Origin: an uncultured Alphaproteobacteria bacterium
GTDB lineage: Bacteria; Pseudomonadota; Alphaproteobacteria; Rhizobiales; Xanthobacteraceae
Assembly: GCA_963758945.1 (NCBI GenBank)
Contig: CAVWXY010000021.1
Coordinates: 191,614-255,613, forward strand
Direction of reading: 5' to 3'
DNA length: 64,000 nucleotides
Positions within the stretch are counted from its first letter, which is position 1, and each line of letters starts with the position of its first letter. The position numbers were made by a program, and so were the translations under genes. Below are positions 2 through 40,171 of the stretch, piece after piece. The notes below the pieces were generated by a model. That model saw only the letters and a list, made by a program, of their open reading frames with translations, had not been told where the DNA came from and did no database searches.

Positions 2-634
2 GTGGACGTGCTGCCGCGCTTCAAGCCGCACGATCGCCGCTTCGAGGTGCCCGGCGTGGTCAGCGTGATGGCGCTGCCGTTCCGGCCGCTGTCGCGCGCG
101 CCCAATCCGCGTCCCGATCGACCGTTCATCGAGCGCCTGCATGCCTACCTGTCGGCGCGCACGCCACTCGCCACCGAGCTCTACGTCATCGGCTGCGAAT
201 ACGTCCCGCTCGGCGTGTCGGTCGGCGTGACAATTCGCGACGGCTTCGCGCGCGATCAGGTGTTGAACGAGGTACGCCAGGCCCTGCAGCGGCTGCTGTG
301 GCCGTTGCCGCCGGGCGGTGCCGATGCCCAGGGCTGGCCGCTCGGCCGCAGCGTCAAGTCGCGCGAGGTGGAGGTCGAGGTCTCGCGCGTCGCCGGCGTG
401 CGCGAGGTCACCGGGCTCTCGCTGTTCAGGCGCGACGGCAATACCTGGCGCTCGCTGGCAAACGGCACCGACGCAGCCCAAACCCTCGAGCTTGCACCGT
501 GGCAATTGCCGGAGCTGCTCTCCGTCGTGGTGGCCGATGATCCCTCTGGCGCGCCGAGCGTGCTCACCGCCCCACCCAATCCTTACGCCGACCCGGACGC
601 CGTCGCGGTGCCGGTCGTACCCGAGTTGTGCTGA
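2..634 (+). CDS. baseplate J-like protein (Afp11/gp6-like), C-terminal fragment; the gene starts upstream of the window
   Basis: The ORF is open from the window edge. The C-terminal sequence (ELYVIGCEYVPLGVSVGVTIRDGF...EVSRVAGVREV) resembles phage/eCIS baseplate J C-termini. Its stop overlaps the next start (TGATG, 632-636). It is syntenic with the following gpI-like gene. Confidence 0.55.
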   Translation: MDVLPRFKPHDRRFEVPGVVSVMALPFRPLSRAPNPRPDRPFIERLHAYLSARTPLATELYVIGCEYVPLGVSVGVTIRDGFARDQVLNEVRQALQRLLWPLPPGGADAQGWPLGRSVKSREVEVEVSRVAGVREVTGLSLFRRDGNTWRSLANGTDAAQTLELAPWQLPELLSVVVADDPSGAPSVLTAPPNPYADPDAVAVPVVPELC

Positions 635-3420
635 TGGACGCCAACGGACTCCGCTTCTGGTTGCTGGCCGACGGGCGCCATTTCCCGTCGCGTCGCCATG
701 CGGTGTGGGATCGCCATTGCCGCGTGCTGCGGCTGGCGAGCGAGCGCACCCTTCCCGCGCCGGCCGACCTCGGCGCCGCGCTCGCCACCGCCACCAGCGC
801 GCTCGAGCGCGTACCGGGCGCGCTCGATGCACACGGCAGCCTGGCGCGCTGGGTCGACAAGTCCGACGCGGATGGCAACGTGGGCGCCGTGGTGGTCTCA
901 AGCCCGCATCTGCCCGACGCTGTTGTCCGACTGCGGCTGCACGAGCGCCCCACCGATCTCGCCGTCGGCCACGACGGCGTGGTGTACCTTCCGCTAGCCG
1001 ATCGCGTGCTCATGCACGACCTGCGCGGCCGCTGGCCGGACGAGTTGGTGCCGGGCAAAGTTAAAGTTCAAGATGAGGATCAAGATTTCGCGCCATGGCG
1101 CCTTGCCACCGACGCAAATGGCGGCGCCTGGGTGCTCGAGCGCGCCAGCGGCCGGCTGGCAAGGCTGCAAGGCCTGCCGCTGCCGCAGCGGCCGCATGTG
1201 GACTACGCCCACACGACGTTTCGTCCGAGCCCCGAGAATGGACGCCCGCCGACGCTGCGGGTGCTGGAGCATGTGCTCTGGCCGTCCGGCGAGCGGCCGG
1301 TGGCGCTCGCGGCGCATCCGCAGCAGGGCCTCGCATTCCTGTCTTGGACCGATGGCGGGCAGACCTTCCTGCGCCGGCTCGACGCGGAACGCGAGATTCT
1401 GACGGCGCCGGTGGAGCTGACGGGCGCACGTTATGCTTATGCGCTGGCTTGGCTCGACGAAGCCCGCATCGCCGTGCGCCTGCCGGGCCGCCGCGATGCG
1501 CCGGCCTTCGCGCTCGACGACGGCGAAGCCGACAACGCGCGCGCGCCGCTCGGCGAAATCTTTCCGCTCGCCGAGGATGCGGTCGAGGCACCGTTCGTGC
1601 ACCGCCTCGCCGGCCCGCCGCACTATCCGACCGTCGACGGCTCCGAGCCGCTGCACGCGCTGTCCATCGCCAATCTGGCGCGCCACGGCGAGGCGGAGAA
1701 CTTTGCCTCCACGCAAATGCACCTCATCGACAGCGGCAGCCAGGTCACAGTGTGGCACCGCCTCTATGCCGAAGCAGCAATTCCGCCCGGCTCGAGCTTC
1801 ATCGTCTGGCTCGCCGCCACGGCCGAGCCCGCGCCGCCGAGCGAGAACACGGCGTGGTGCGCGCATCGCTTCGGCCGGACAATTCCGCGCCCGGCCGCCT
1901 GGCCCGAGCCGCAGGCTGCGTGGGAAGCGTTGCCGTCCGAGCTGCCGGCCCATCCCGGCCTCGGTCCCTGGCCGAGCGAACGCGACCGTTCCGGCCTGTT
2001 CTCGGTGCTGATCCAGAATCCGCGGCGGCGCGTGCACAGCCTGATTGGGCGCTATTTGTGGGCGCGCGTGGAGCTGTTCGGCGACGGCCGCGTCACGCCG
2101 GAAATCGCCGCGCTGCGCTGCTGGGCGAGCCGCTTCTCGTATCGCGATCGGTATCTGCCGCGGCTCTATCGCGAGCAGCTCTTCGGCGCGCCGGCGCTCG
2201 CGCCGGGCGAGCGCATCGACGATCTCGCCGACACGGAGGCGCTCGCCAACACGCTGGCGCCGCAGCTCGATGCCGGCGGCGCTCCGTCCGCCGCAGTGGC
2301 TGCGCAACTCGCCGGCATCGACCTGCCGCTCGGCCCCATGGCCGAGATCCGTGTCGAGCAACCAGGCCAGGCGTGGCTGCTGCAGGACACGGCAGGGGGA
2401 CGCGCATGGCCGCTGCGGCGCGAAGCCGACGCCATCACGCTGTATCGGCCCGGGGCAACAGCGGCTGACTTTCTCGAGCAATTCCTCTTGAGCTTCGAGG
2501 CGATGCTGACGCCGCTCGAGGATCGGGTGGCGGCGGCGCACCTGTTGACCGATCCGACGAGCGCGCCGGCGGACCGCCTCGACTGGCTCGCAGCGTGGAT
2601 TGGCCTCGCCTTCGATCCGGCGCTGCCGTCGGAGCGGCGGCGCGACTGGCTCGCCGCCGCGCCCCAGCTCGCGCGCCTGCATGGCACCCGACAGGGGCTG
2701 ACGCTCGCGCTCGACATCGCCAGCGGCGGCGGCGTGCGCGTCGGCGAGATCGTCCTCGTTGAAAACTTCCGCCTGCGCCGGCTGCTGGCCACGCTGCTCG
2801 GCGTCGACCTCGCCGACGAAACCGACCCGCTGCTGCCCGGTCTCGCCGTCAGCGGCAACTCGGTGGTAGGCGATACCCTCATCCTCGCCGAGGCCCAGAC
2901 CGCCGAGCTGCTCGCGTTGTTCCGCGAGGAGGTCGCCACCGTGGAGGAGAATGCCGCGGTGCGCGCCTTCTACGAACGCCTCGCGCACCGCGCCACCGTG
3001 CTGGTGCATCGGGGCGTGAGCCCGCAGGATCTCGGCCTGCTGCGCCGCGTGGTTGAGCTGGAGGCGCCCGCCCATGTGGACGTGCGCACCGCCACCGCCA
3101 CGTGGCCGCTCTTGGTCGGCATTGCCAGCTTGGTCGGCGTCGACACCTATCTGGGCCCGCCGCCGCAGCCGCAGCCGGCGCGCACCGATGTGTCGTCGCT
3201 CGGCATGGGCGACTACGTGCTCGGCCCGATCTCGCTCGACCCGCGCCGCACCGGCGGCACCGCGCCGATGCCTTCCGCACCACCGCCGGTGGCCAACGCC
3301 GGCTCCGATTTCACCGTTCAATTCGGCCGCTCGTTCAATCTCGACGCCAGCGGCTCCAGCGCCGCCCCCGGCCGCCGCATCGAAGCCTACCGGTGGATGC
3401 GTCTGCCGCCTGCGACCTGA
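634..3420 (+). CDS. phage tail protein I-like baseplate wedge protein (Afp12 position) with a C-terminal half PKD-like motif
   Basis: ATG 634 overlaps the upstream stop; GTG 628 is an alternative start. An internal segment (DRLDWLAAWIGLAFDPALPSERRRDWLAAAPQLARLHGTRQGLTLALD...VENFRLRRLLATLLGV) matches the P2 gpI / tail_TIGR02242-type domain. The C-terminus reads ANAGSDFTVQFGRSFNLDASGSS...IEAYRW. Confidence 0.65.
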   Translation: MDANGLRFWLLADGRHFPSRRHAVWDRHCRVLRLASERTLPAPADLGAALATATSALERVPGALDAHGSLARWVDKSDADGNVGAVVVSSPHLPDAVVRLRLHERPTDLAVGHDGVVYLPLADRVLMHDLRGRWPDELVPGKVKVQDEDQDFAPWRLATDANGGAWVLERASGRLARLQGLPLPQRPHVDYAHTTFRPSPENGRPPTLRVLEHVLWPSGERPVALAAHPQQGLAFLSWTDGGQTFLRRLDAEREILTAPVELTGARYAYALAWLDEARIAVRLPGRRDAPAFALDDGEADNARAPLGEIFPLAEDAVEAPFVHRLAGPPHYPTVDGSEPLHALSIANLARHGEAENFASTQMHLIDSGSQVTVWHRLYAEAAIPPGSSFIVWLAATAEPAPPSENTAWCAHRFGRTIPRPAAWPEPQAAWEALPSELPAHPGLGPWPSERDRSGLFSVLIQNPRRRVHSLIGRYLWARVELFGDGRVTPEIAALRCWASRFSYRDRYLPRLYREQLFGAPALAPGERIDDLADTEALANTLAPQLDAGGAPSAAVAAQLAGIDLPLGPMAEIRVEQPGQAWLLQDTAGGRAWPLRREADAITLYRPGATAADFLEQFLLSFEAMLTPLEDRVAAAHLLTDPTSAPADRLDWLAAWIGLAFDPALPSERRRDWLAAAPQLARLHGTRQGLTLALDIASGGGVRVGEIVLVENFRLRRLLATLLGVDLADETDPLLPGLAVSGNSVVGDTLILAEAQTAELLALFREEVATVEENAAVRAFYERLAHRATVLVHRGVSPQDLGLLRRVVELEAPAHVDVRTATATWPLLVGIASLVGVDTYLGPPPQPQPARTDVSSLGMGDYVLGPISLDPRRTGGTAPMPSAPPPVANAGSDFTVQFGRSFNLDASGSSAAPGRRIEAYRWMRLPPAT

Positions 3421-3453
3421 TCCGATCGAAACCGCAACCAGAGGAGCACAGCC

Positions 3454-3837
3454 ATGGCTCAATTCAACATCAACCAGGAAGTCGTCACCGACGTGCCGGT
3501 GGTGGAAGTGACGGTGTCGCCGGACAAAGCGCTCCCCATCGGCCGGCAGCGCTTCCAGTTGGTCGTCACCGATAATGCCGGCAACGTGTCGAAACCCGAC
3601 GTGGTGGAAGTCATCGTCGCCGATCAGGACGCGCCCACCGCGGTGCTCAACGTGCCGTCGGTCATCGGCTTCGGGCGGAGCTTCAACATCAGCGGCGAGA
3701 AGTCGTTCGACGTCGGCGGCGGCAAGATCGTGAAATATGCCTGGACTTATCTCGGCCCGTCTCCGGTCGTCGCGCCGCCGCCGATCATCACCACCCCACC
3801 CATCATCTCGCCCGCGCCCACGCCGGTGATCCGCTGA
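3454..3837 (+). CDS. small PKD/Ig-like module protein (second half-domain, then first half-domain, then a Pro-rich tail)
   Basis: AGAGGAG at 3440-3446 precedes ATG 3454. The protein contains RFQLVVTDNAGNVSKPDVVEVIV and then FGRSFNISGEKSFDVGGGKIVKYAW. It is in the same frame as the flanking ORFs. Confidence 0.55.
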   Translation: MAQFNINQEVVTDVPVVEVTVSPDKALPIGRQRFQLVVTDNAGNVSKPDVVEVIVADQDAPTAVLNVPSVIGFGRSFNISGEKSFDVGGGKIVKYAWTYLGPSPVVAPPPIITTPPIISPAPTPVIR

Positions 3838-3846
3838 GATGTGAGC

Positions 3847-4344
3847 ATGGTGCAGTTCGCGCTCAACCAGACGATCGAGACGGCCGAGCCGACGATCACG
3901 GTCGACCCTGGGCTCCCGCTCGGGCAGCACCGGTTTCAGCTCGTCGTCATCGATGCCGCCGGCAACCGCAGCCAGCCGGCGATCGCGGTCGTCGACATCC
4001 AGCGCGCAGTGCCGATAGCCCCCACGCCGGACCTGGTGGCCACTTCGGTGACACCCATCAATCCGGCCGCGGTGACGCCTACGCGGCCCGCCGTCCCGCC
4101 CTCGGTCAGTCCGGTCGTGTCGCCCACGCCGACCCTCAGCCCGCTGGCCTCGCCTCGCTCGACCGTCACGCCGATCGCACCGACGGTGATCCGGTCGGGG
4201 GACGCGGCGCCGATGGTGCCGCACGCGCTGCCGGAATCATCCGACGTGCCGACGAGCGCCCAGCCGCCGCGTAAGTCGAGCGGCTCTGCGAAGAAGCCGA
4301 AGCGATCTCCCAAAAAGCCGCCCCCACCGCGCAAGGAGAAGTGA
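3847..4344 (+). CDS. small PKD/Ig-like module protein with a Pro/Thr/Ser-rich spacer and a polybasic C-terminal tail
   Basis: The N-terminus MVQFALNQ...HRFQLVVIDAAGNRSQP is paralogous to the 3454 ORF. The tail reads KSSGSAKKPKRSPKKPPPPRKEK. GTG 3841 is an alternative start. Confidence 0.55.
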   Translation: MVQFALNQTIETAEPTITVDPGLPLGQHRFQLVVIDAAGNRSQPAIAVVDIQRAVPIAPTPDLVATSVTPINPAAVTPTRPAVPPSVSPVVSPTPTLSPLASPRSTVTPIAPTVIRSGDAAPMVPHALPESSDVPTSAQPPRKSSGSAKKPKRSPKKPPPPRKEK

Positions 4345-4346
4345 TC

Positions 4347-5273
4347 ATGAGCGCCATTTCGCGCCGCCCGGAGGCTGACCCGCTCTATGCGCGGCCGCGT
4401 CCTGAGCGCGCGGCTTATGCCACCGGCATGCTGCTCGATGCGCAGGACTTCGCCGACGAGCAGACCTACCACCGCGGCCGCCTGGCCCGCGGGCTGCTTT
4501 TCGGCGTCGGCAGCGGCACGCTCGCCGGCCTCGCCGTGACGCATCGGCCGGCGACCCAGGATCAAGCGGAGGAGATCCAGGTCGCGCCCGGTATCGCGAT
4601 CGACGGCATCGGCCGGCTGGTGGAGATTCCGCGGCCCGCCTGTCTGCGGCTGGAGCGCTGGTTCACCGGTGAGACGGAGCGCGACGGCGGCGACACCTTG
4701 CGCCGCGCCGCGCAGGGCAATCTCGATCCCCTCGTCGGCCCGCGCGTGCAGCCGCCCGGCGCGCTCCCGGCGCGCGCGGTGGTGGCCGACGTCTATGTGC
4801 GCTTCGTCAGCTGCGAGAACGGGCTGACGCCGAGCTTTGCAGCGGGTCCGTTCGATGCGCTCGACGCGGTGGCGCCGTCGCGCCTGCGCGACGCCTATGA
4901 GCTGCACCTGATCGCGCGCGGCGACGGCCTCGACGTCGACAATCCCGATCCCGCCAAGCGCTTCACCGGCCTGCCCGACCTCGGGCCCGACCTCGCCGCT
5001 ACCGCCGACGTGAACCAGCGCCGCGCCGCGCTGCAAGACTTCGTTCTCAGCTCCTACCCCGTGAGCGGCGTTGCCGGCAGCGCCGACGCGATGGCGCCGC
5101 CCGCCGGCCATCCGCCCGACCTCGATCCCACCGCCGTGTTCCTGGCGCGGGTGCTGATCCCGGTCGGCCCGGGCAATCCGCCGCAGCGCACCAATGAAGC
5201 GGTGTGCATCGACAATTTCAGCCGTCGCATCGTGCCATCGGCGACGTTGCTCGCACGCTGGGTCGGTGCCTGA
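4347..5273 (+). CDS. eCIS-associated hypothetical protein, first of three paralogues sharing an N-terminal motif (Afp13 / fibre position)
   Basis: AAGGAGAA at 4333-4340 precedes ATG 4347. The motif is RPERAAYATGMLLDAQDFADEQTYHRGRLARGLLFGVGSGTLAGLAV. Amino-acid composition looks coding. Confidence 0.5.
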   Translation: MSAISRRPEADPLYARPRPERAAYATGMLLDAQDFADEQTYHRGRLARGLLFGVGSGTLAGLAVTHRPATQDQAEEIQVAPGIAIDGIGRLVEIPRPACLRLERWFTGETERDGGDTLRRAAQGNLDPLVGPRVQPPGALPARAVVADVYVRFVSCENGLTPSFAAGPFDALDAVAPSRLRDAYELHLIARGDGLDVDNPDPAKRFTGLPDLGPDLAATADVNQRRAALQDFVLSSYPVSGVAGSADAMAPPAGHPPDLDPTAVFLARVLIPVGPGNPPQRTNEAVCIDNFSRRIVPSATLLARWVGA

Positions 5274-5317
5274 ACGGGCGCCGGTCAAGCCGGCAGACGA
5301 ATAGAGGAGCGTACGAC

Positions 5318-7709
5318 ATGATCGACTTCACCGCAGGCGCCGCGCGCGAACTGATTGCGCCGGAAGACGTCGACTCGCTGCGGGCTTCCGGCGCCCTGAT
5401 CGAGGATGTGCGCCGCGAGCGGCCACGCTATTTCGACGGCCGCTTCCTGGCGGCCCGCGACCTCATCCGCGATCAGCAATATTTCCTCGCCCGCGAAGCC
5501 GATCTCGGCCAGGCATCGGGCGGCGGCGTTACCGTGGGCCTGCGCGTCGCGCTCGGCCAGGCCGCCGACGAGCTGGTCGTAAGCCGCGGCTATGGCGTCA
5601 CCCCGGCGGGCGAACTCACCCTGCTGCCGCAAGATTTGACCGTGCGGCTCGCCGATATTCCCCTCGCCGAGCAGCTCTCCGCACGCTTCGCGCTGTCGCG
5701 CCGGCCGCAGCCGCCGCTGCGCAACCGTACCGGCCTGTTCGTGCTGGCGCTGCGCCCGGTGGAGTTCACCGCCAATCCGGTCGGTGCCTATCCGACCTCC
5801 ATCACCGGCCAGCGTACCGTTGAGGACGGCGACGTCATCGAGGCCACGGCGGTGGTGCTGGTGCCGTGGACCGACGACAACGCCACCGACGCGCTCGATG
5901 CCCGCCGCGGTCGCGCCGCGCGCGCGATCTTCGTCGAGAACCGGCCGAGCGGCGTGTCGGCCAATGTGCTGCCGCTGGCCATGGTCGCGCTGCAGAACAA
6001 CGTGGTGGTGTGGCTGGACGTGGCCATGGCGCGCCGCGAGCTGGGCGCCGATTTCGCCGACCGGCCGGGCCTTGGCGTCGGCGGCCGGGCGCTGAGGCTG
6101 GCCTATCTGCTGCAGTATTACGGCCATCTCGAGGACGAGCTGCGTCACAATGGCGGTCGCGGTTTTCCGGCTGTCCCGCGCTTCAGCGCGCTGCCGCCGG
6201 CCGGCCCCATGCCGCCCGGCATGATCTCCACGCGCGACTTCACGCAGAACTTCTTCCCCGCCGAGATCGACGCCGAGCTTGCGCCCATCCCCGAGGATGA
6301 GCTCCCCGCCATGGTGGACGAGGCGCTGGGCCTCCCGGCCGTCGACCTGACCGTGCCGCCGGCGCTGCTCGAACTCGACCGCCATGCTGGTGCTGGCGCC
6401 CGTGCCGCGCGCCGAGTGGATTGCCGTCAACAATCGGCTGAACCAGACGGGCAGCACGCCGGCGACGCGCCAGCTCCTGCCGGCTGCCGCCAATCGCCTC
6501 GCCGCGCGCAAGCCGCTCGAGATCCTGCAGCGCCTGCGCCTGCCGTCGCCGCTGCCGGTGCCGGTCGACACCAGCGACCCGGTGCAGCAGGAGTGGGCGC
6601 GCCTCGCCACCTTGCCGAACCTGTGGTTCGTGCGCCGGCGCAACCTGGCGTATCGCGACGATCTCGCGGGACGCTTCGTGCGCTTCGCCGGCCGCGACGT
6701 CGCGGCCGAGGACAGCGTGCGCGCGCGGCTCGAACCCACGGGGCTGCGCCCACAATTCGACGCGCTGGTCGAGCGCGCGCCGCCCAACGTCGCCGCCGAA
6801 GTGACGGCGTTGCTCGCCAGCCCACGCTTTGCCACCTCGCGCGTGCTCACCGCCGCCGCCCTCGGGGACTTGACCCGCATCGGCCAGCTCGATCGTGCAT
6901 CGGTGCTCGCCGCGTCGGCGCGCTTGACCGCGTCCGGCGTGGGCGACGGCTTGCTCCGCCTCGAGCGCAGCCAGGGCGACGTGCTGACCTCGCCCGAGGC
7001 GCTGAGCAAAATCGCCGCGACGCCCGATTGGCGCAACACCGACGCGGCGGCGCGCGCCGCGAGCGAGAGCACCGTGCCGACGCTCGCCGCGTCCTTGGCA
7101 GGCCGGCCGGTCTTGACCGGGCCAAGTGCGCCGACGGCCCCCGCACCAACCCCAGCCGCACCAACGCCAGCAGCACCAGCGCCCGCCGCACCTGGGCCGG
7201 TCACCACCGCGCCCGCAACACCGACGCCGTCACCCGCGACACCTCGGCCAACGGCACCCACGGCGCCGACGCCGGCGACGCCCACGACAGCGCCGACGAC
7301 CGCGCCGACCGCGCCGCGACCCACTCTGACAACGCCGGTGTCACCCACCGTGACAACGCCGGTTTCACCGGCACCGACCACGCCCACGGCCCCGCGGCCT
7401 ACCGTGACGGCACCGGTTTCGCCCGCCGTGACGTCGCCCGTTTCACCCACGCCCGTCGTGACGGGGCCGCTTTCACCCAGAGTCACCGTCACGGCGCCCA
7501 TCACACCGACACCCACCGTGACGCCGACCGCAACGACAAGGCCGACTCTCACCACCCCCGTTGCACCAACGCCCGCGGTCACGACCGCGCCCTTGGCGCC
7601 GCGCTCGGCGGTGGCGCCGAAGGAAGAAGCAGCGAAGAAGCGGAAGTCGGCCTCGAAGAAGAAGCGCACCGCAAAGCGCAAGCGCAGCCCTAGACAGCCG
7701 GAGAGATGA
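5318..7709 (+). pseudogene. fibre-position paralogue 2; reading frame broken (+1) near 6377. The break could be a sequencing error, recoding or decay.
   Basis: AGAGGAG at 5303-5309 precedes ATG 5318. The 5' part is credible in frame 2 up to ...PPALLEL (6376). Beyond that, frame 2 turns into Arg/Ala/His-rich junk with no stop until 7693. Frame 0 (open from 6351; ORF-track ORF 6384-7709) gives credible protein (LVLAPVPRAEWIAVNN...) that ends in a PT-rich region and a polybasic tail. Confidence 0.5.
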
Positions 7710-7710
7710 C

Positions 7711-10700
7711 GTGACCATCAAGCCGATCGATCAGCCGTTGCCCGGCGAGCAAGTCGTTGCGCTGTCGCCGGAGAGCGCCGCCGAAGCGGCCACCGTCTGG
7801 CTCGCGCGACCCAATCTGTTCCCCGGCCGCGCCCTCACGGCGCCGACGCTGCAACGGCGGCAGCGCTGGCAGGCCGGCCGCCTGGCGCTGCGCGGACAAC
7901 GGCTGACCGCCGGCGTCGTGCAGGGGCTCGAAGTCGGATACGACGTCGTGCCGCTGCCGGCCGGCGGAGGGCCCGACATCACGCTCGCCATCGCGGCTGG
8001 ACGCGGCCTCGCGGTGAGCGGCGAAGACGTGGTGCTGCCGCAGCCGGTGGAGATCCATCTGCGCGACCTGCCGGTGTTCGCCGAACCGTCGGTCGAGGCC
8101 GGCCTGCCGCCCGAGCCGGTACCGGCCCCGCCCCCGCCCGATCCGGTGCCGGCTCCCCCGCCACCCGAAGACGTGCCACCGCCGCCCCGACCGGAAGATA
8201 CACTCCGCGTCGGCGCGGGCGATACCACCGGAGCTCCAGCGCCGCCCGATGATGTTCCGCCGCGCCCCGGCGATGAGGACGGCGGTGGCGGCACCGGCAC
8301 CGGCGAGTTGCGCGCCCGCGCCTTCCTGCGGCGAAGGCTCGGCGCACTGCTCGCCGCCGCGCCCAACGCGCTCCCCGGCGTCGGCGTGCTGGTGCTGCAG
8401 CCGATTACGCTTGATCGCCTCGGCGAGTTCGATCCTACCGATCCGTGCGAGCTGGGCTTCGGCGAGGTCGGAGACAACTCCTCGTTCGAGGACTGGCGCA
8501 TCGCCGACGGCGTGCGTCTCGCCTGGTACGCCTGGCCGCTCGAATGGCGGCCGCTGCCGGCAGCTGGGCCAACGCAACGCAACGCGCTCGCATGGACGAT
8601 TTTCCAGGCCGAGGCCGCTTTGCCGCCCGGCGCCGTGCTGCCATGGGAGCAGCTCGGCGTACCCGTGGCGTTGATCGCGCTCGATTCGCTGCAGCTGCAG
8701 CCGATATTCATCGACCGCGCCAGCGTGGTGCGTCTCGGCGGCCGCGCGCGCGACCCGCGTCTCGCGCTCGGCGCCAAGCCTTCGGCCGAGTGGCGCCGCG
8801 CGCCGCTGTGGCAGGCGCAGATCGAGCAGCTGGCGGAGCAGATCGCCGATGCCGGCGATCCGCCGCCGCCCGCCGCCACGCTGGCGGAGGCCTTTGCCCG
8901 GTTGCCGCCGGCCGGTCTGTTGCCGACCAACGCCATCGATCTCGGCGTTCTGCCGCTGAACGATGCGGTCGAGACGCTGCACAGCGATTTCTTTCCCGAC
9001 ACCTTCGAGCTCGACGCCGTGCCGGTGCCGATCGAGAGCCTCGACCTCGCCGTGCGTGAAGCGGCCTCGCTCGCGCCCGTCGAAATGAGCCAGGCCGAGC
9101 GTGTGCGCGTGCTGGTGCCGGTGCCGCAGGCGGTCTACGAGCCGCGTCTTTTGCAGGAAGAGGTGATCGACCCCGAGTTCCAGGCCACGCTCGATCGTTT
9201 CCTGCTTGCCCGCGCGCGGGCGCTCGGCGCGCGCCAGGGCTTGCGCGCCAAGCACTCGCGGCTGGTGCAGCTCGCCACCGGCCGCGCGCTGCCGGTGCCG
9301 AGACCCGAGGAGGATGCGCAGGCGCTCGAAGCCGAGAGCTTCGCGCCGTGGGGACCGCCGCCCGCCGGCGGCGGCCATCGCGGGCTGCTCGCGCCGGGCC
9401 TGCATCAGCACTTCTTCCGCAACGCGACAGCACGGCTTTCGCTCGGTGTCGGCGACGGGCTCTACGCGTGGGTCTATCTCGATCCCGATCATCCGCCGCG
9501 CGCCTTGATGCTGCAGTGGCATGACGGCGAGAGTTTCGACCATCGCGCCTACTGGGCGGCGGCCGACGACGAAGCACTGATCGCCACCGATATCGACGGC
9601 ACGCCGCTCACGGTCGTGCGGATGGGCGACCTGCCGGAAGCCGGCCAGTGGTTGCGACTGGAGGCGCCGGCGCAAAGCATCGGCCTCGGTGGTGCGGAGC
9701 TCAGCGGCATGAGCTTCACGCTCTATGACGGCCAAGCGGCGTTCGGCGAGACCGGCGCCGTGAACGCCGACAGCGTCGCTGTGCCGTGGTTTTCCAACGT
9801 GCTGCCCCAGGGCGCCGAGCTCGACCTGTCGGATCCCGGCGTCGATCCCTGGACATTTCTCACGCCCAACGATCTCTACGCGCCGTTCGAGCCTCCGTTC
9901 GGGCTCGAGGTCGACCCGGACGAGAATGGCGCCCTGGGACGCAGCACGATCATCGCTGCGCTCAAGGCGGATTCCGCGCTCGCCCCGTTGACGGTGACGG
10001 AAGGCAACGTCACCGGCGGCGTCCTTTCGCCGGCCGAGCTGCAGCAGCTCGACGCACGTGGGCTCGACGGCTTCATCGCCTTCCTGAAGTCGCGCGCCGA
10101 CCGCGCCGACGACATCGTCGACTACGGCTTCGTCAAGGTGCAGACCGACACCTATCGCGTGCGGCAGCTGATCCTCGGCACCACCGCCGCCACGCGGCTG
10201 GCCATCTCGCCCACGTTGGCGACGATCGCCCAATCGGAAACCGCGGTCGCGTCGCAGGAGCGGATCGCCAGCTTCTTCGACGAGCTCAAGACTGCGCCGA
10301 CTGTGCGCGCCGCGGCGTTCGGCGGCACCGCCCCGACCGCGCCCCCCACGGCAGCCGTTTCGGTCGCCGGGCCCATCACCGGCGCAGGCCTCACGAGAGC
10401 CGGCCTTACCGCCGCGCGTGTCGTTCAACCGACGTCGATTTCCACCGCGGCGCTCGATATCGGCGTCACCATCCGCGACGAAGCCTTCGCCAGGGCTCCG
10501 CTCGCCGACCGCACCACCATTATCGACCGCGAGGTGGAGGTGGTGAGGCCCATCCGCGTGGTCGAAACCAAGCCGCCCACGCCCACGCCGCGCGACGTGA
10601 CCGAAGTGGATCCGCTGATCGGCAAGGCGCTGATCCGCACCACCAGCATCGCGCAACGGCTCGAGGAGCCCAAGGCGCTCAACGCCAAGAACTACTCCAC

Positions 10701-37334: not shown

Positions 37335-38035
37335 GCGTCGGGCTGTCGATGGAAGATCTCGTGGCCGGCTACGGCGCGACCGTCGTCATCGACGGCGTTT
37401 CGCTCGCGGTACCGGCGGGCGGCACGCTCGCCATCCTCGGACGCAACGGCGTCGGCAAGACCACGCTGTTGCAGACCCTGATGGGGCTGACCACGCTGCA
37501 TCGCGGCGCCGTATTGCTCGGGGACGAACGCATCGACGGCGTTCCGACGCACCGTCGCGCGCGGCTGGGTCTGGGCTACGTGCCGCAGGAGCGTGAGATT
37601 TTCCCCTCGCTCACCACCGAGGAGAACCTGGCGGTGTCGGTGCTGCCCTCCGGCTGGAGCATCGAGGCGGTGCTCGACCTCTTCCCCCTGCTCGCGGAGC
37701 GCCGGCGCACCTCCGGCAACCGGCTCTCCGGCGGCGAGCAGCAAATGCTCGCGATCGGCCGCGCGCTGGTCGGGGGACCCAAGGTACTGCTGCTCGACGA
37801 GCCGCTCGAAGGGCTGGCGCCGATCGTGGTCGAGGCCCTGTTCGAGGCCCTGCCGAAGATCCGCGACGAAGGCGGCTTGAGCATCGTTCTGGTGGAGCAG
37901 AACGCCGGGCTTGCCCTCTCCTTCGCGCAGCATGCAGCCGTGCTCGACCGCGGCAAGGTGGTCCACTTCAGCACGAGCGCCCAGCTGCGCGCCGACGAGG
38001 CAACGCAAGCGCGGCTCCTGGGAGTGGCCCGGTGA
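37331..38035 (+). CDS. ABC transporter ATP-binding protein (LivF-like)
   Basis: Walker A is GRNGVGKTT, the signature is LSGGEQQMLAIGRAL, and Walker B is LLLDEPLEGLAP. Confidence 0.9.
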   Translation: MSVGLSMEDLVAGYGATVVIDGVSLAVPAGGTLAILGRNGVGKTTLLQTLMGLTTLHRGAVLLGDERIDGVPTHRRARLGLGYVPQEREIFPSLTTEENLAVSVLPSGWSIEAVLDLFPLLAERRRTSGNRLSGGEQQMLAIGRALVGGPKVLLLDEPLEGLAPIVVEALFEALPKIRDEGGLSIVLVEQNAGLALSFAQHAAVLDRGKVVHFSTSAQLRADEATQARLLGVAR

Positions 38036-38242
38036 TATCGAGCGTCCGCCCCTCGTTCCGCGCAGCCTTGGAGGAACCGGCGCGGTTGGTGCTCTTCAGC
38101 CAATGGTGGCGGACAGGACTCTGGCGGAAGGCGTGTCCGCCAAAGTCTATTGAGAACGCTTTAGGGCCTGTCTTCAGTTGGGGGATTCCCAAATCAGTGA
38201 TTGAGTGATTCATGGGTGGTCGGCCTAAGGAGGGGCCGACCG

Positions 38243-38994
38243 ATGCGGCGCTATGCATTGCGGGACGACCAGTGGGATCGGATCAAGGATTTTCTGCCGG
38301 GCCGCGAAGGCCATGTCGGAGGCACGGCAGCAGACAATCGCCTGTTCGTCGAGGCTGTTTTGTTTAGATACCGAGCCGGCATTCCTTGGCGTGATCTGCC
38401 GGCGCGCTTTGGCGATTGGAAGATCGTCCATCAGCGCTTCAATCGATGGGCGAAGGGCGGTGTTTTCGAGCGTATTTTCAAGCTGTTGGCCAGCGATCGC
38501 GATAATGAGTACATGATGATCGACGCCACAATCGTGCGTGCGCACCAGCACAGCGCCGGCGCACGAAAAAAAACGGCGCGCAAGCGATCGGCCGATCCCG
38601 CGGTGGATTGACCACCAAAATTCACGCGCTCGTCGATGCTCTCGGCAATCCCGTCGAATTGATGCTCACGCCAGGACAGGCCAATGACCTCATTTGCGCA
38701 CAGCCGTTGCTCGAGGAGTCCGATCCAGAGGCTCTGATCGGCGACACCGCATACGACGCCGATGTCTTCATCGAGGCTCTTGCCGAGCGGCAAATCACCC
38801 CGGTGATTCCTTCACATCCCCGCCGCAAGAAACCACGGCCCTGCGATTTTGCCCTCTACTGCGAGCGCAATCTCGTCGAGCGCTTCTTCAACAAACTCAA
38901 GCACTTTCGCGCTATTGCCACGCGCTATGACAAACTCGCCAGAAATTTCCTCGCCGGCGTCCAGCTTGCCTCGGCTATCATTCTCCTCAACTGA
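38243..38994 (+). CDS. IS5-family transposase (orfA 38243-38611 and orfB 38608-38994, presumably fused by -1 slippage)
   Basis: Contains MRRYALRDDQWDRIKDFLPG...IPWRDLPARFG...VHQRFNRWAKGGVFE and then TKIHALVDALGNP...GDTAYDAD...YCERNLVERFFNKLKHFRAIATRYDK. Confidence 0.8.
38566..38573 (+). promoter_or_regulatory. A8 slippery run, candidate -1 frameshift site of the IS5-family transposase
   Basis: A run of eight A residues sits in the orfA/orfB overlap region. Confidence 0.6.
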
Positions 38995-39517
38995 GGACAG
39001 GCCCTAGCTTTAGAAATTTGTTTAGTTTGCCGCGCGAGCGCACCCACGCGCCCCGTAAACACCCGAAGCCCTTTTGGCGCTCGGTGGTCCGGAATTTCAA
39101 CGCTGCTTCCAGCTTCTCCTGTGCAGTCGCGCGCTCGCCTCCGTACGTGTCCAAAGTGTTGGATACCCTGAAAAGCGCCTCGTTTGCCTCCCACGGATCG
39201 TAACAACCTTTCACGACCCACACGGCGAGGTCTTCATTTAGCGCAAAGGCTCGCATCCGGGCCGCGAGGTCGCGGAAGACATTTATAGCCTCGTGCAATC
39301 TCTTAATTTCGTCATCCGATAAGTCGTCGACTGCTTTGACAGAGCCGTCTGGAAACTCCGTTCGCACGGCCCTCACATTGCCGTACACGATGCTTCGGTG
39401 GATGACCTCACCGCGCAAATCAAAGAATTGTCTGAACGGACGACCGAGAAAAGAGGTCACCAACCACCCTGCCCCTCCGAGCAGGAGAACGCCAACCGTG
39501 TTCCAAACACCGGCCAT
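38987..39517 (-). CDS. hypothetical membrane-anchored protein; its 3' end was altered by the IS5 insertion
   Basis: The N-terminal hydrophobic helix is VGVLLLGGAGWLVTSFL. The ORF crosses the IS boundary at 39006. Without the IS it would stop a few codons later. Confidence 0.4.
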   Translation of the reverse strand: MAGVWNTVGVLLLGGAGWLVTSFLGRPFRQFFDLRGEVIHRSIVYGNVRAVRTEFPDGSVKAVDDLSDDEIKRLHEAINVFRDLAARMRAFALNEDLAVWVVKGCYDPWEANEALFRVSNTLDTYGGERATAQEKLEAALKFRTTERQKGFGCLRGAWVRSRGKLNKFLKLGPVLS

Positions 39518-39579
39518 GTCCGCCCCTTAAAATCAACGGCGCGGCAATCCTACGCGATTCGCCCGACGCGGACGGCGCG

Positions 39580-39939
39580 CTAGTACAAGTTGGGCCACTC
39601 CTTCTTGAACTCGTCAAGCTTGCCAAAAAGACTATTTTTCAAGAAAACGCTGTAACAATAGGCTAGCTCCTTTCTGAGCGCGCCGACCATTATCTCAAGT
39701 TCTTCGCAGTCGATAACCAGTGCCTTCGCACCATGCTTTTTTGTTTCGTAGGTGCTGCCTTCGAATCGATTACGCGAATATGGCTCCGCTTTAAGAGCGA
39801 CGACTAAGTGCGGCTGCATGCATTCTGTCCGTTTTTTCTTGGCCGGGTCCTGAATACTCCCCCGTATTTCAAATCGGACCTTCACATCTTGGATGGAGTA
39901 GTGATTAGGCGTTTTGTTACGCGTGTCGCTGATCTGCAT
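39580..39939 (-). CDS. hypothetical protein (lower-GC block)
   Basis: ATG at 39939 follows GAAGG. The Lys/Glu-rich composition is typical of AT-richer foreign DNA. I recognise no motif. Confidence 0.3.
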   Translation of the reverse strand: MQISDTRNKTPNHYSIQDVKVRFEIRGSIQDPAKKKRTECMQPHLVVALKAEPYSRNRFEGSTYETKKHGAKALVIDCEELEIMVGALRKELAYCYSVFLKNSLFGKLDEFKKEWPNLY

Positions 39940-40171
39940 ATGAACCTTCGGCTGGTTTGGTCGTCGGTCGTCGCCGGATGCAGAGTATCCAATTCCGGTT
40001 GGCCAAAAAACTCCGGCCGAGCCGTCCGGCCCGGCCGGCGCGCGCCTGCACAAGTTTTGGGAAGTCGTTATCGATGCCTGGCTCTGACTTGGTGAATTCT
40101 GACTCCAACGCCAACCCCGCACGATCCATGAACCCTTTTTTCGTAGCGTGATCCGTGTGCCAAAACTGATC

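Follow-up and report, generated by a model that had tools for sequence, protein, structure and literature searches.

Several ways are known in which immunoglobulin-like (Ig-like) domains are completed by, or added to, structural proteins. In chaperone-usher and type V pili, an incomplete Ig-like fold is completed in trans by donor-strand complementation or exchange. Fraser et al. (2006) reportedly found phage structural proteins that acquire Ig-like domains through programmed frameshifting or readthrough. In extracellular contractile injection systems (eCIS), the Tail_P2_I protein has been proposed as a fibre-anchoring adaptor in a catalogue of eCIS fibre domains (PMC12923769), and in the pair myomesin and obscurin-like-1 a segment of one protein naturally completes, in trans, an Ig domain of the other (PMC5222588). 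The locus described here lies in a 64,000-nt stretch (the window) of contig CAVWXY010000021.1, from an uncultured alphaproteobacterium of the Xanthobacteraceae. A Cis12-like baseplate gene, whose product carries a Tail_P2_I domain, is followed there by two small open reading frames (ORFs), ORF2 and ORF3, and a tandem pair of PKD domains is divided among the three. Literature searches for a described split PKD or Ig domain in the baseplates of contractile injection systems (CIS) gave no result.

The reading favoured here, to which a probability of roughly 0.7 is given, is that Cis12, ORF2 and ORF3 are made as separate proteins, which then complete each other's half-domains (fold complementation) to give Cis12-PKD1-PKD2-tail. 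A docking chain of split domains had been among the explanations offered by the first-pass annotation of this DNA, together with leaky UGA termination and decay of one ancestral ORF. The comparative evidence and one single-chain AlphaFold2 model now support it; the complementation in trans, between separate chains, is what we infer from them.

Two PKD domains divided over three genes

The first-pass annotation had described three collinear ORFs in a common frame, with no more than a single TGA codon as the barrier between neighbours; its coordinates and the frame (frame 1) are all correct. Coordinates are positions within the window, and all features lie on the + strand.

628..3420, +: Cis12-like baseplate protein with Tail_P2_I domain (PF09684 and TIGR02242), 930 residues, ending in TGA
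3280..3417, +: N-terminal half of PKD domain 1, strands A to C, the last ~46 residues of Cis12 (PPPVANAG...IEAYRWMRLPPAT); alone it matches the K319L-like_PKD profile at 1-35
3418..3420, +: Cis12 stop TGA, in the C-C' loop of PKD domain 1
3440..3446, +: ORF2 Shine-Dalgarno site AGAGGAG
3454..3837, +: ORF2, 127 residues, ATG to TGA
within 3454..3837, +: ORF2 residues ~1-56, C-half of PKD domain 1 (C' to G strands)
within 3454..3837, +: ORF2 residues ~56-65, ADQDAPTAVL, conserved inter-domain linker and A strand
within 3454..3837, +: ORF2 residues ~60-103, N-half of PKD domain 2, ending WTYLGP
within 3454..3837, +: C-terminal 24 residues of ORF2, a proline-rich tail peculiar to the window's lineage
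3835..3837, +: ORF2 stop TGA, in the C-C' loop of PKD domain 2
3847..4344, +: ORF3, 165 residues, ATG to TGA 4342-4344
within 3847..4344, +: ORF3 residues ~1-52, C-half of PKD domain 2
from ~4003, +: ORF3 spacer, rich in proline, threonine and valine, of low complexity
~4264-4341, +: C-terminal tail of ORF3, the last ~26 residues, rich in lysine and arginine (KKPKRSPKKPPPPRKEK)

The Cis12 stop is followed by 33 nt, that is, 11 sense codons, before the ATG of ORF2 at 3454; GAT GTG AGC separates the ORF2 stop from the ATG of ORF3 at 3847.

It had also been claimed that a PKD-like domain is split across each stop, and the profile searches bear this out; for domain 1 the joined halves pass the Pfam cut-off and single halves do not. 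An artificial fusion across both stops exceeds the cut-off for K319L-like_PKD (PF22352). When just the last 46 residues of Cis12 are joined to the first 59 of ORF2, the whole profile (positions 1-84 of 84) is matched in one piece with 28.4 bits, the gathering cut-off being 27, and the Cis12 half and the ORF2 half taken separately each remain under it. The hidden Markov model of ORF2 also finds ORF3, its positions 1-71 matching ORF3 residues 4-67 (E 2.6e-10). When the ORF2 profile is aligned with a solved structure, the PKD domain of ColG (4aqo), its halves come out in swapped order, positions 55-99 corresponding to PKD residues 4-47 and positions 31-46 to residues 67-82; because of this swap the cut is assigned, by alignment, to the turn that links strand C to strand C' and has the canonical sequence 'WxFGDG'. 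The ORF2 profile, in an exhaustive search, gave 9,894 relatives, the best of which are giant tandem-PKD proteins, and within tandem-PKD proteins the profile aligns nearly end to end (e.g. 2-102 on 101 contiguous residues). Because of this contiguous, almost full-length alignment, ORF2 is a register-shifted slice of a tandem-PKD array, made up of the C-half of domain n, a linker of normal length and the N-half of domain n+1.

The split is conserved, the reading frame is not

The survey of homologous loci, with one genome per species, covered 59 distinct ORF2 loci or genes, mostly from Betaproteobacteria, and junctions were counted in 56 loci for Cis12-ORF2 and in 55 for ORF2-ORF3. The genera represented are Thauera, Accumulibacter, Variovorax, Pseudorhodoferax, Roseateles, Ramlibacter, Zoogloea and others; Roseateles noduli and Ramlibacter alkalitolerans are among the cultured carriers. 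ORF2 has 187 close database relatives, almost all of them stand-alone proteins of 103-107 residues without Pfam annotation; across genera the proteins are 60-85% identical, and an alignment of 20 relatives has 29 invariant columns. Cis12 ends just past '..EYRWRxLPP..' in all of the ~56 loci, and in all loci compared ORF2 ends just past 'WTYLGP' and both ORF2 and ORF3 start at the equivalent Met. Every locus has one ORF2, never more. The layout of ORF3, with a half domain, a variable proline-rich spacer and a basic tip, is kept in nearly all homologous loci; the spacer, rich in Pro, Thr and Val, ranges from 20 to >120 residues and ends in a conserved Lys/Arg-rich tip, the exceptions being L011 and L055, where ORF3 has only 72-73 residues and no basic tip. 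A 'PVIR' motif recurs in the ORF3 spacers; the additional proline-rich tail that ORF2 has in the window contains it too.

This conservation bears on the suggestion that the stops are disabling mutations in a once-continuous Cis12-PKD-PKD-tail gene, the downstream pieces being non-functional. Unsplit tandem-PKD relatives exist, which makes a continuous ancestor plausible, but the ORFs, starts and Shine-Dalgarno sites are intact and the cut has the same position over ~55 loci in many genera, with ORF2 conserved to the degree just given; stops that fall in the equivalent loop of two successive domains are, moreover, unlike random decay. Decay of an ancestral ORF has next to no chance of being the right explanation on this comparison, and recent decay, judged from these sequences, is rejected.

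No natural fusion appeared either among 98 database relatives of a fused Cis12-ORF2 query; the matches were Cis12 proteins ending at their own stop, or unsplit PKD proteins. P0307 and P0337, taken for natural Cis12-ORF2 fusions by query coverage, proved on sequence inspection to be frameshifted gene calls, and three loci flagged as possible fusions (L004, L050 and L061) are actually ORF2 genes without an upstream Cis12. Frameshifted copies derived from metagenome-assembled genomes (MAGs), namely P0307, P0337, L019, L060 and L062, give chimeric 'proteins' that mix frames over the Cis12/ORF2/ORF3 junctions, and database entries of this kind are mistakable for natural fusions.

The properties of the two junctions among the homologues were as follows.

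Frame of the downstream gene, same / +1 / +2: Cis12 to ORF2, 24 / 21 / 11; ORF2 to ORF3, 17 / 32 / 6
Upstream stop codon: Cis12, TGA 39, TAG 17; ORF2, TGA 53, TAA 3, TAG 3
Intergenic gap in nt (median): Cis12 to ORF2, 8 to 369 (39); ORF2 to ORF3, -4 to 146 (16)
Downstream ATG start: ORF2, 58/59; ORF3, 54/55
Shine-Dalgarno-like site: ORF2, 56/56 (AGGAG-type); ORF3, 41/55

The Shine-Dalgarno site that the first-pass annotation had recognized upstream of ORF2 is thus not only correct for the window but general. Both junctions are in frame in 7 of the 55 loci, where ~1/9 would be expected, and because the two values are so close the shared frame of the window, like its TGA stops, is best attributed to chance. 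The Cis12-ORF2-ORF3 region has ~70% G+C, with scarce stop codons and long stop-free stretches in several frames; same-frame ORF triplets with single-TGA separators have a chance expectation of ~1/9 of such triplets, and stops are rare at 70% G+C.

These counts decide on programmed readthrough of the UGA codons at 3418 and 3835, by which a ladder of Cis12, Cis12-ORF2 and Cis12-ORF2-ORF3 would be made, with complete PKD domains in the fusions only. Low-level background UGA readthrough occurs in bacteria; the ORFs of the window are in frame with single TGA separators, the junction loops would accept extra residues, and the first junction is in frame in somewhat more than one third of the loci (24/56; one-sided binomial p = 0.087, shared ancestry not corrected for). 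However, at neither junction is the frame conserved, the +4 base past the Cis12 stop varies among homologues, and ORF2 has its own ATG and AGGAG signals. Conservation of the stop as TGA at orthologous loci had been put forward as a check on leaky termination; the stop proved to be TGA or TAG after Cis12 and TGA, TAA or TAG after ORF2, and the frame relation is free. An Rfam scan of the region gave no match, selenocysteine insertion sequence (SECIS) elements included, and shuffled sequences fold as well as the RNA that follows each of the two stops (z = -0.03, -1.28). Because neither frame nor stop codon is conserved, readthrough is rejected as the mechanism; at most it would be a strain-specific event of low level, which is considered very improbable. 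Two further candidates were discarded: recoding of UGA as selenocysteine, since TAG or TAA replaces TGA in homologues, frames vary and no SECIS appears in the Rfam scan, and an alternative genetic code or known RNA elements, in view of the varying stops and frames and the lack of an Rfam match.

Predicted folds, assembly and origin

The first-pass annotation had named, as one part of what would refute its reading, ORFs that fold into complete domains alone with no interface. The AlphaFold2 model of ORF2 alone (20-sequence alignment) gives no such fold: its mean predicted local distance difference test score (pLDDT) is 64 and its predicted template-modelling score (pTM) 0.54, with the lowest confidence at residues 60-74 (linker and A strand), and a comparison with the PDB returned no match at E <= 0.001 and no PKD. 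By this model, ORF2 is not a confident autonomous domain.

For the joined halves, P0337 was used as an accidental tethered construct, since this mis-called protein from an error-prone assembly consists of the Cis12 C-terminal half-domain, ~30 junk residues and the ORF2 N-terminal half-domain. Its alignment was built without ORF2 rows; a MAFFT alignment including ORF2 had put the Cis12 half-domain onto the homologous ORF2 half-domain and was unusable. The pLDDT was 86-96 at residues 21-70, 80-95 at residues 101-140 and 47-66 in the linker. In Foldseek searches the model matched the PKD domains of AAVR/KIAA0319L (E 2.7e-5, target-normalised template-modelling (TM) score 0.70-0.75) and the PKD domain of ColG (target-normalised TM 0.77-0.80, root-mean-square deviation 3.3 A). 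The alignments cover both halves, with ~117-121 columns on targets of 85-95 residues, so both halves form one sandwich in the model; the prediction is compatible with Cis12 N-half and ORF2 C-half making up one PKD sandwich.

The ORF2-alone model bears also on the possibility that ORF2 is a circularly permuted, self-folding PKD domain, in which case the Cis12 N-half would pair with the ORF3 C-half, or both would be disordered. The pTM, the strands in both halves, the low confidence at 60-74, as if the A strand were a linker, and the existence of orphan ORF2 genes without Cis12 would all fit such a permutant. On the other hand, a residue-for-residue profile alignment shows that the G-to-A connection ADQDAPTAVL has the same length as the linker in ordinary tandem arrays, and since the two ends of a PKD domain are found at opposite poles of the fold, a connection of this length could not lead back. 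Residues of the linker and of the A strand are near-invariant, which would be needless for a sacrificed linker, and the model is of low confidence without a PKD match. A permutant is accordingly held to be quite unlikely.

In the assembly by half-domain complementation that is preferred here, a tandem pair of PKD domains (Ig-like beta-sandwiches), a proline-rich spacer and a basic tip are encoded as three separately translated pieces, with the gene boundaries in the C-C' loop of each domain and none between the domains. For domain 1, strands A to C are encoded in Cis12 and C' to G in ORF2; for domain 2, strands A to C are encoded in ORF2, after a normal inter-domain linker, and C' to G in ORF3, which adds the tail. 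Each half of a PKD sandwich, A-B-C as well as C'-G, has strands in both sheets; neither half is therefore expected to be stable by itself, and a tight joint is expected. The pieces would fold on binding into a tight non-covalent chain Cis12-ORF2-ORF3, probably of 1:1:1 stoichiometry, and this chain would suspend a flexible, positively charged tail from each baseplate wedge, beside the Cis13 fibres. It may be speculated that the Lys/Arg-rich tip of ORF3 contacts a negatively charged surface. This assembly predicts that the pieces co-purify and fold on binding, and that the particles of an ORF2 deletion mutant lack ORF3.

Several points weigh against it. The second junction is weaker than the first, ORF2 C-terminus and ORF3 N-terminus matching as one stretch over profile positions 17-82 with 16.8 bits against the cut-off of 27. 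The pTM of 0.54 for ORF2 alone may mean that AlphaFold2 tried a compact, self-complemented fold. The P0337 model is a single chain with an accidental linker of ~30 residues and concerns domain 1 only, and its alignment held 10 unsplit PKD homologues, so that it is partly a homology model. Finally, orphan ORF2 genes stand away from any Cis12 (L061, L050 and L004), which is unexpected if folding of ORF2 requires Cis12; they may be relics or moved modules, or their partner may be encoded elsewhere.

The three orphans differ in their surroundings. L061 (6001-6535), from an alphaproteobacterial MAG, has ORF2 and an intact ORF3 after a GlmM-like gene; L004 (10001-10312) has ORF2 alone, among metabolic and ABC-transporter genes; L050 (~6001-6309) has ORF2 and an ORF3-like fragment only.

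It can further be asked whether the chain is longer than three pieces. ORF2 contains both an N-half and a C-half, each homologous to its counterpart in a neighbouring gene, so that the N-half of one ORF2 might accept the C-half of the next; Cis12 would then nucleate a serial polymer Cis12-(ORF2)n-ORF3 of variable length, capped by ORF3, as in donor-strand-exchange pili. The strongest ribosome-binding site of the three genes is that of ORF2, which is compatible with a molar excess. The halves are, however, conserved differently: the N-halves read 'S.AAPGR.I.EYRWR' in Cis12 and 'SFDVGGGK.V.Y.WTY' in ORF2, and the C-halves 'EVTVSPDKPLP.GR' in ORF2 and the 4-residue-shorter 'VDAGLP.G.H' in ORF3, a pattern that suggests cognate pairs, and each locus has exactly one ORF2. 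A polymer is thus regarded as unlikely.

A stronger version of half-domain complementation, namely that it is a purpose-built assembly device and not a neutral relic, is put forward tentatively and is thought rather unlikely. Cis12 would offer an unfolded half-sandwich that is completed on the arrival of ORF2, and ORF2 would then offer the next half to ORF3 or to more ORF2. The pieces would then form a 'click' chain, in a fixed order, essentially irreversibly and without a chaperone, and possibly a fibre Cis12-(ORF2)n-ORF3 of variable length. Were this true, injection-system appendages would be built on a natural principle that is new, and protein engineering would gain a split-PKD tag pair ready for use.

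As to the origin of the split module, the closest unsplit relatives (37-43% identity) are secreted tandem-PKD proteins in non-CIS neighbourhoods (P0279, P0308, P0313, P0333 and P0354; L064 and L065). At the cut position they read '..YVWTRLSGxGGxMPLNQPVxT..', and the conserved Met of 'GGxMPLNQ' lies exactly at the start position of ORF2 and ORF3. This alignment fits a fission that took over the internal Met of the C-C' loop as a start codon. In the simplest course of events, a single fission at this conserved Met would have come first, and the domain, by then already split, would have been duplicated in tandem, giving rise to ORF2; duplication of a domain that bears the stop-Shine-Dalgarno-ATG junction would make ORF2 in one step. 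A more distant Cis12 (L067, 6001-8434) ends '..SLDPRLAGGFPEPVVIEA', exactly where the half-domain would start in the window's clade; its immediate neighbour downstream is a Cis13-like gene, and ORF2 and ORF3 are absent. Because this Cis12 stops before the half-domain and Cis13 comes next, the whole split module is best regarded as an add-on of one clade.

The surrounding locus and known systems

The following genes flank the three pieces.

2..634, +: 3' end of a Cis11-like baseplate gene, truncated by the window edge; NCBIfam TIGR02243 'putative baseplate assembly protein', E 5e-11, profile 553-657 of 659
4347..5273, +: Cis13-like (tail-fibre family) gene, directly 3' of ORF3; N-terminal match to NCBIfam CIS13_fam, E 1.6e-11, under the family cut-off

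Cis12 starts with GTG 628 in the ORF listing, and an ATG lies two codons further on, at 634. It scores 38 bits against Pfam PF09684 Tail_P2_I (cut-off 20.6) and 62.9 bits against NCBIfam TIGR02242 (cut-off 51.85); the match to NCBIfam CIS12_fam is partial, covering the C-terminal third only, with E 2.5e-33 and 115.7 bits against a cut-off of 860. By these scores the protein is to be classed as Cis12-like, outside the curated CIS12_fam equivalog. In the homologous loci L001 and L003, the gene order is tube, VgrG (Phage_GPD / base_V), gp25, Cis11, Cis12 (~930 residues), a 104-residue gene, a 100-150-residue gene and a ~305-residue Cis13-like gene, this conserved Cis13-like gene of ~300-305 residues holding the place equivalent to that in the window. 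Because of the Cis11, Cis12 and Cis13 matches, the eCIS_core proteins encoded downstream and the synteny with L001 and L003, the locus is identified, from its gene content, as a CIS/eCIS baseplate locus.

Other observations concern the rest of the window. The CIS13-like N-terminal region occurs in two successive genes (4347-5273, E 1.6e-11; 5204-7693, E 0.012), whose ORFs as listed overlap by ~70 nt; the pair may represent two different fibre proteins with a common baseplate-attachment head. An eCIS_core domain (PF13699) is present in three large proteins, encoded at 16381-19614 (E 2e-33), 21442-24213 (E 2e-16) and 24609-26351 (E 1.7e-31), which are presumably cargo or effectors of the window's injection system. 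Between Cis13 and the eCIS_core proteins, the large ORFs 7561-12357, 12377-14308 and 14349-16052 have no Pfam or NCBIfam match. The G+C content falls to 0.545 (26001-28000) and 0.566 (38001-40000) against ~0.65-0.73 in the rest of the window, and these low-G+C stretches, which lie downstream of the CIS cluster, may mark the edges of an island or insertion.

It is rare for a mismatch in register between genes and domains to be conserved throughout a clade, and since each small gene resembles a domain-less 'hypothetical protein', annotation pipelines overlook the domain. The Cis12 or Tail_P2_I adaptors of eCIS and R-type pyocins resemble the present case in that the Tail_P2_I baseplate protein is encoded just upstream of fibre genes. 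In the eCIS fibre work, however, whole-fibre N-terminal domains dock on the adaptor, and no adaptor half-domain completed by small downstream proteins is described (PMC12923769). If the proposed assembly is true, it would constitute a new mode of attaching an appendage to the baseplate of a contractile injection system, and orthogonal split-PKD pairs might be used to engineer eCIS particles, which are under development as delivery vehicles.

With the tandem-PKD surface proteins (P0279, P0308 and P0333; the PKD domains of AAVR/KIAA0319L and ColG) the locus shares the K319L-like_PKD family, an equal linker length and the C-C' loop Met; these are nevertheless single secreted polypeptides in non-CIS settings, whereas in the window two cuts, each in a C-C' loop, divide the array among three genes, with the first half-domain on Cis12. 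In the phage cases of recoding, too, tail or baseplate proteins carry accessory Ig-like domains C-terminally, where a gene junction lies, but these cases need a conserved recoding site and a fixed frame, while here the frame varies and each piece has its own start signals. Myomesin and obscurin-like-1 differ in that a single strand is donated, to a eukaryotic muscle protein, and not as the product of gene fission within one domain.

The closest parallel in mechanism is with donor-strand complementation and exchange in chaperone-usher and type V pili, where a fold of the same kind is completed in trans and a very stable, ordered, non-covalent chain results, as would be the case here if the pieces assemble as proposed. 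In pili, one strand is donated (the G strand or an N-terminal extension) and a chaperone and an usher catalyse the process, whereas here each partner would contribute about half a sandwich (4-5 strands, in both sheets), and the chain seems to be three pieces long and not a polymer. No chaperone or usher domains are present in the gene tables of L001 and L003 or in the scanned ORFs of the window, and the link to donor-strand exchange is best taken as an analogy of mechanism only. If the complementation is real, the locus would hold a natural split Ig-like domain in which each partner supplies about half of the fold, unlike the one-strand donation of pili.

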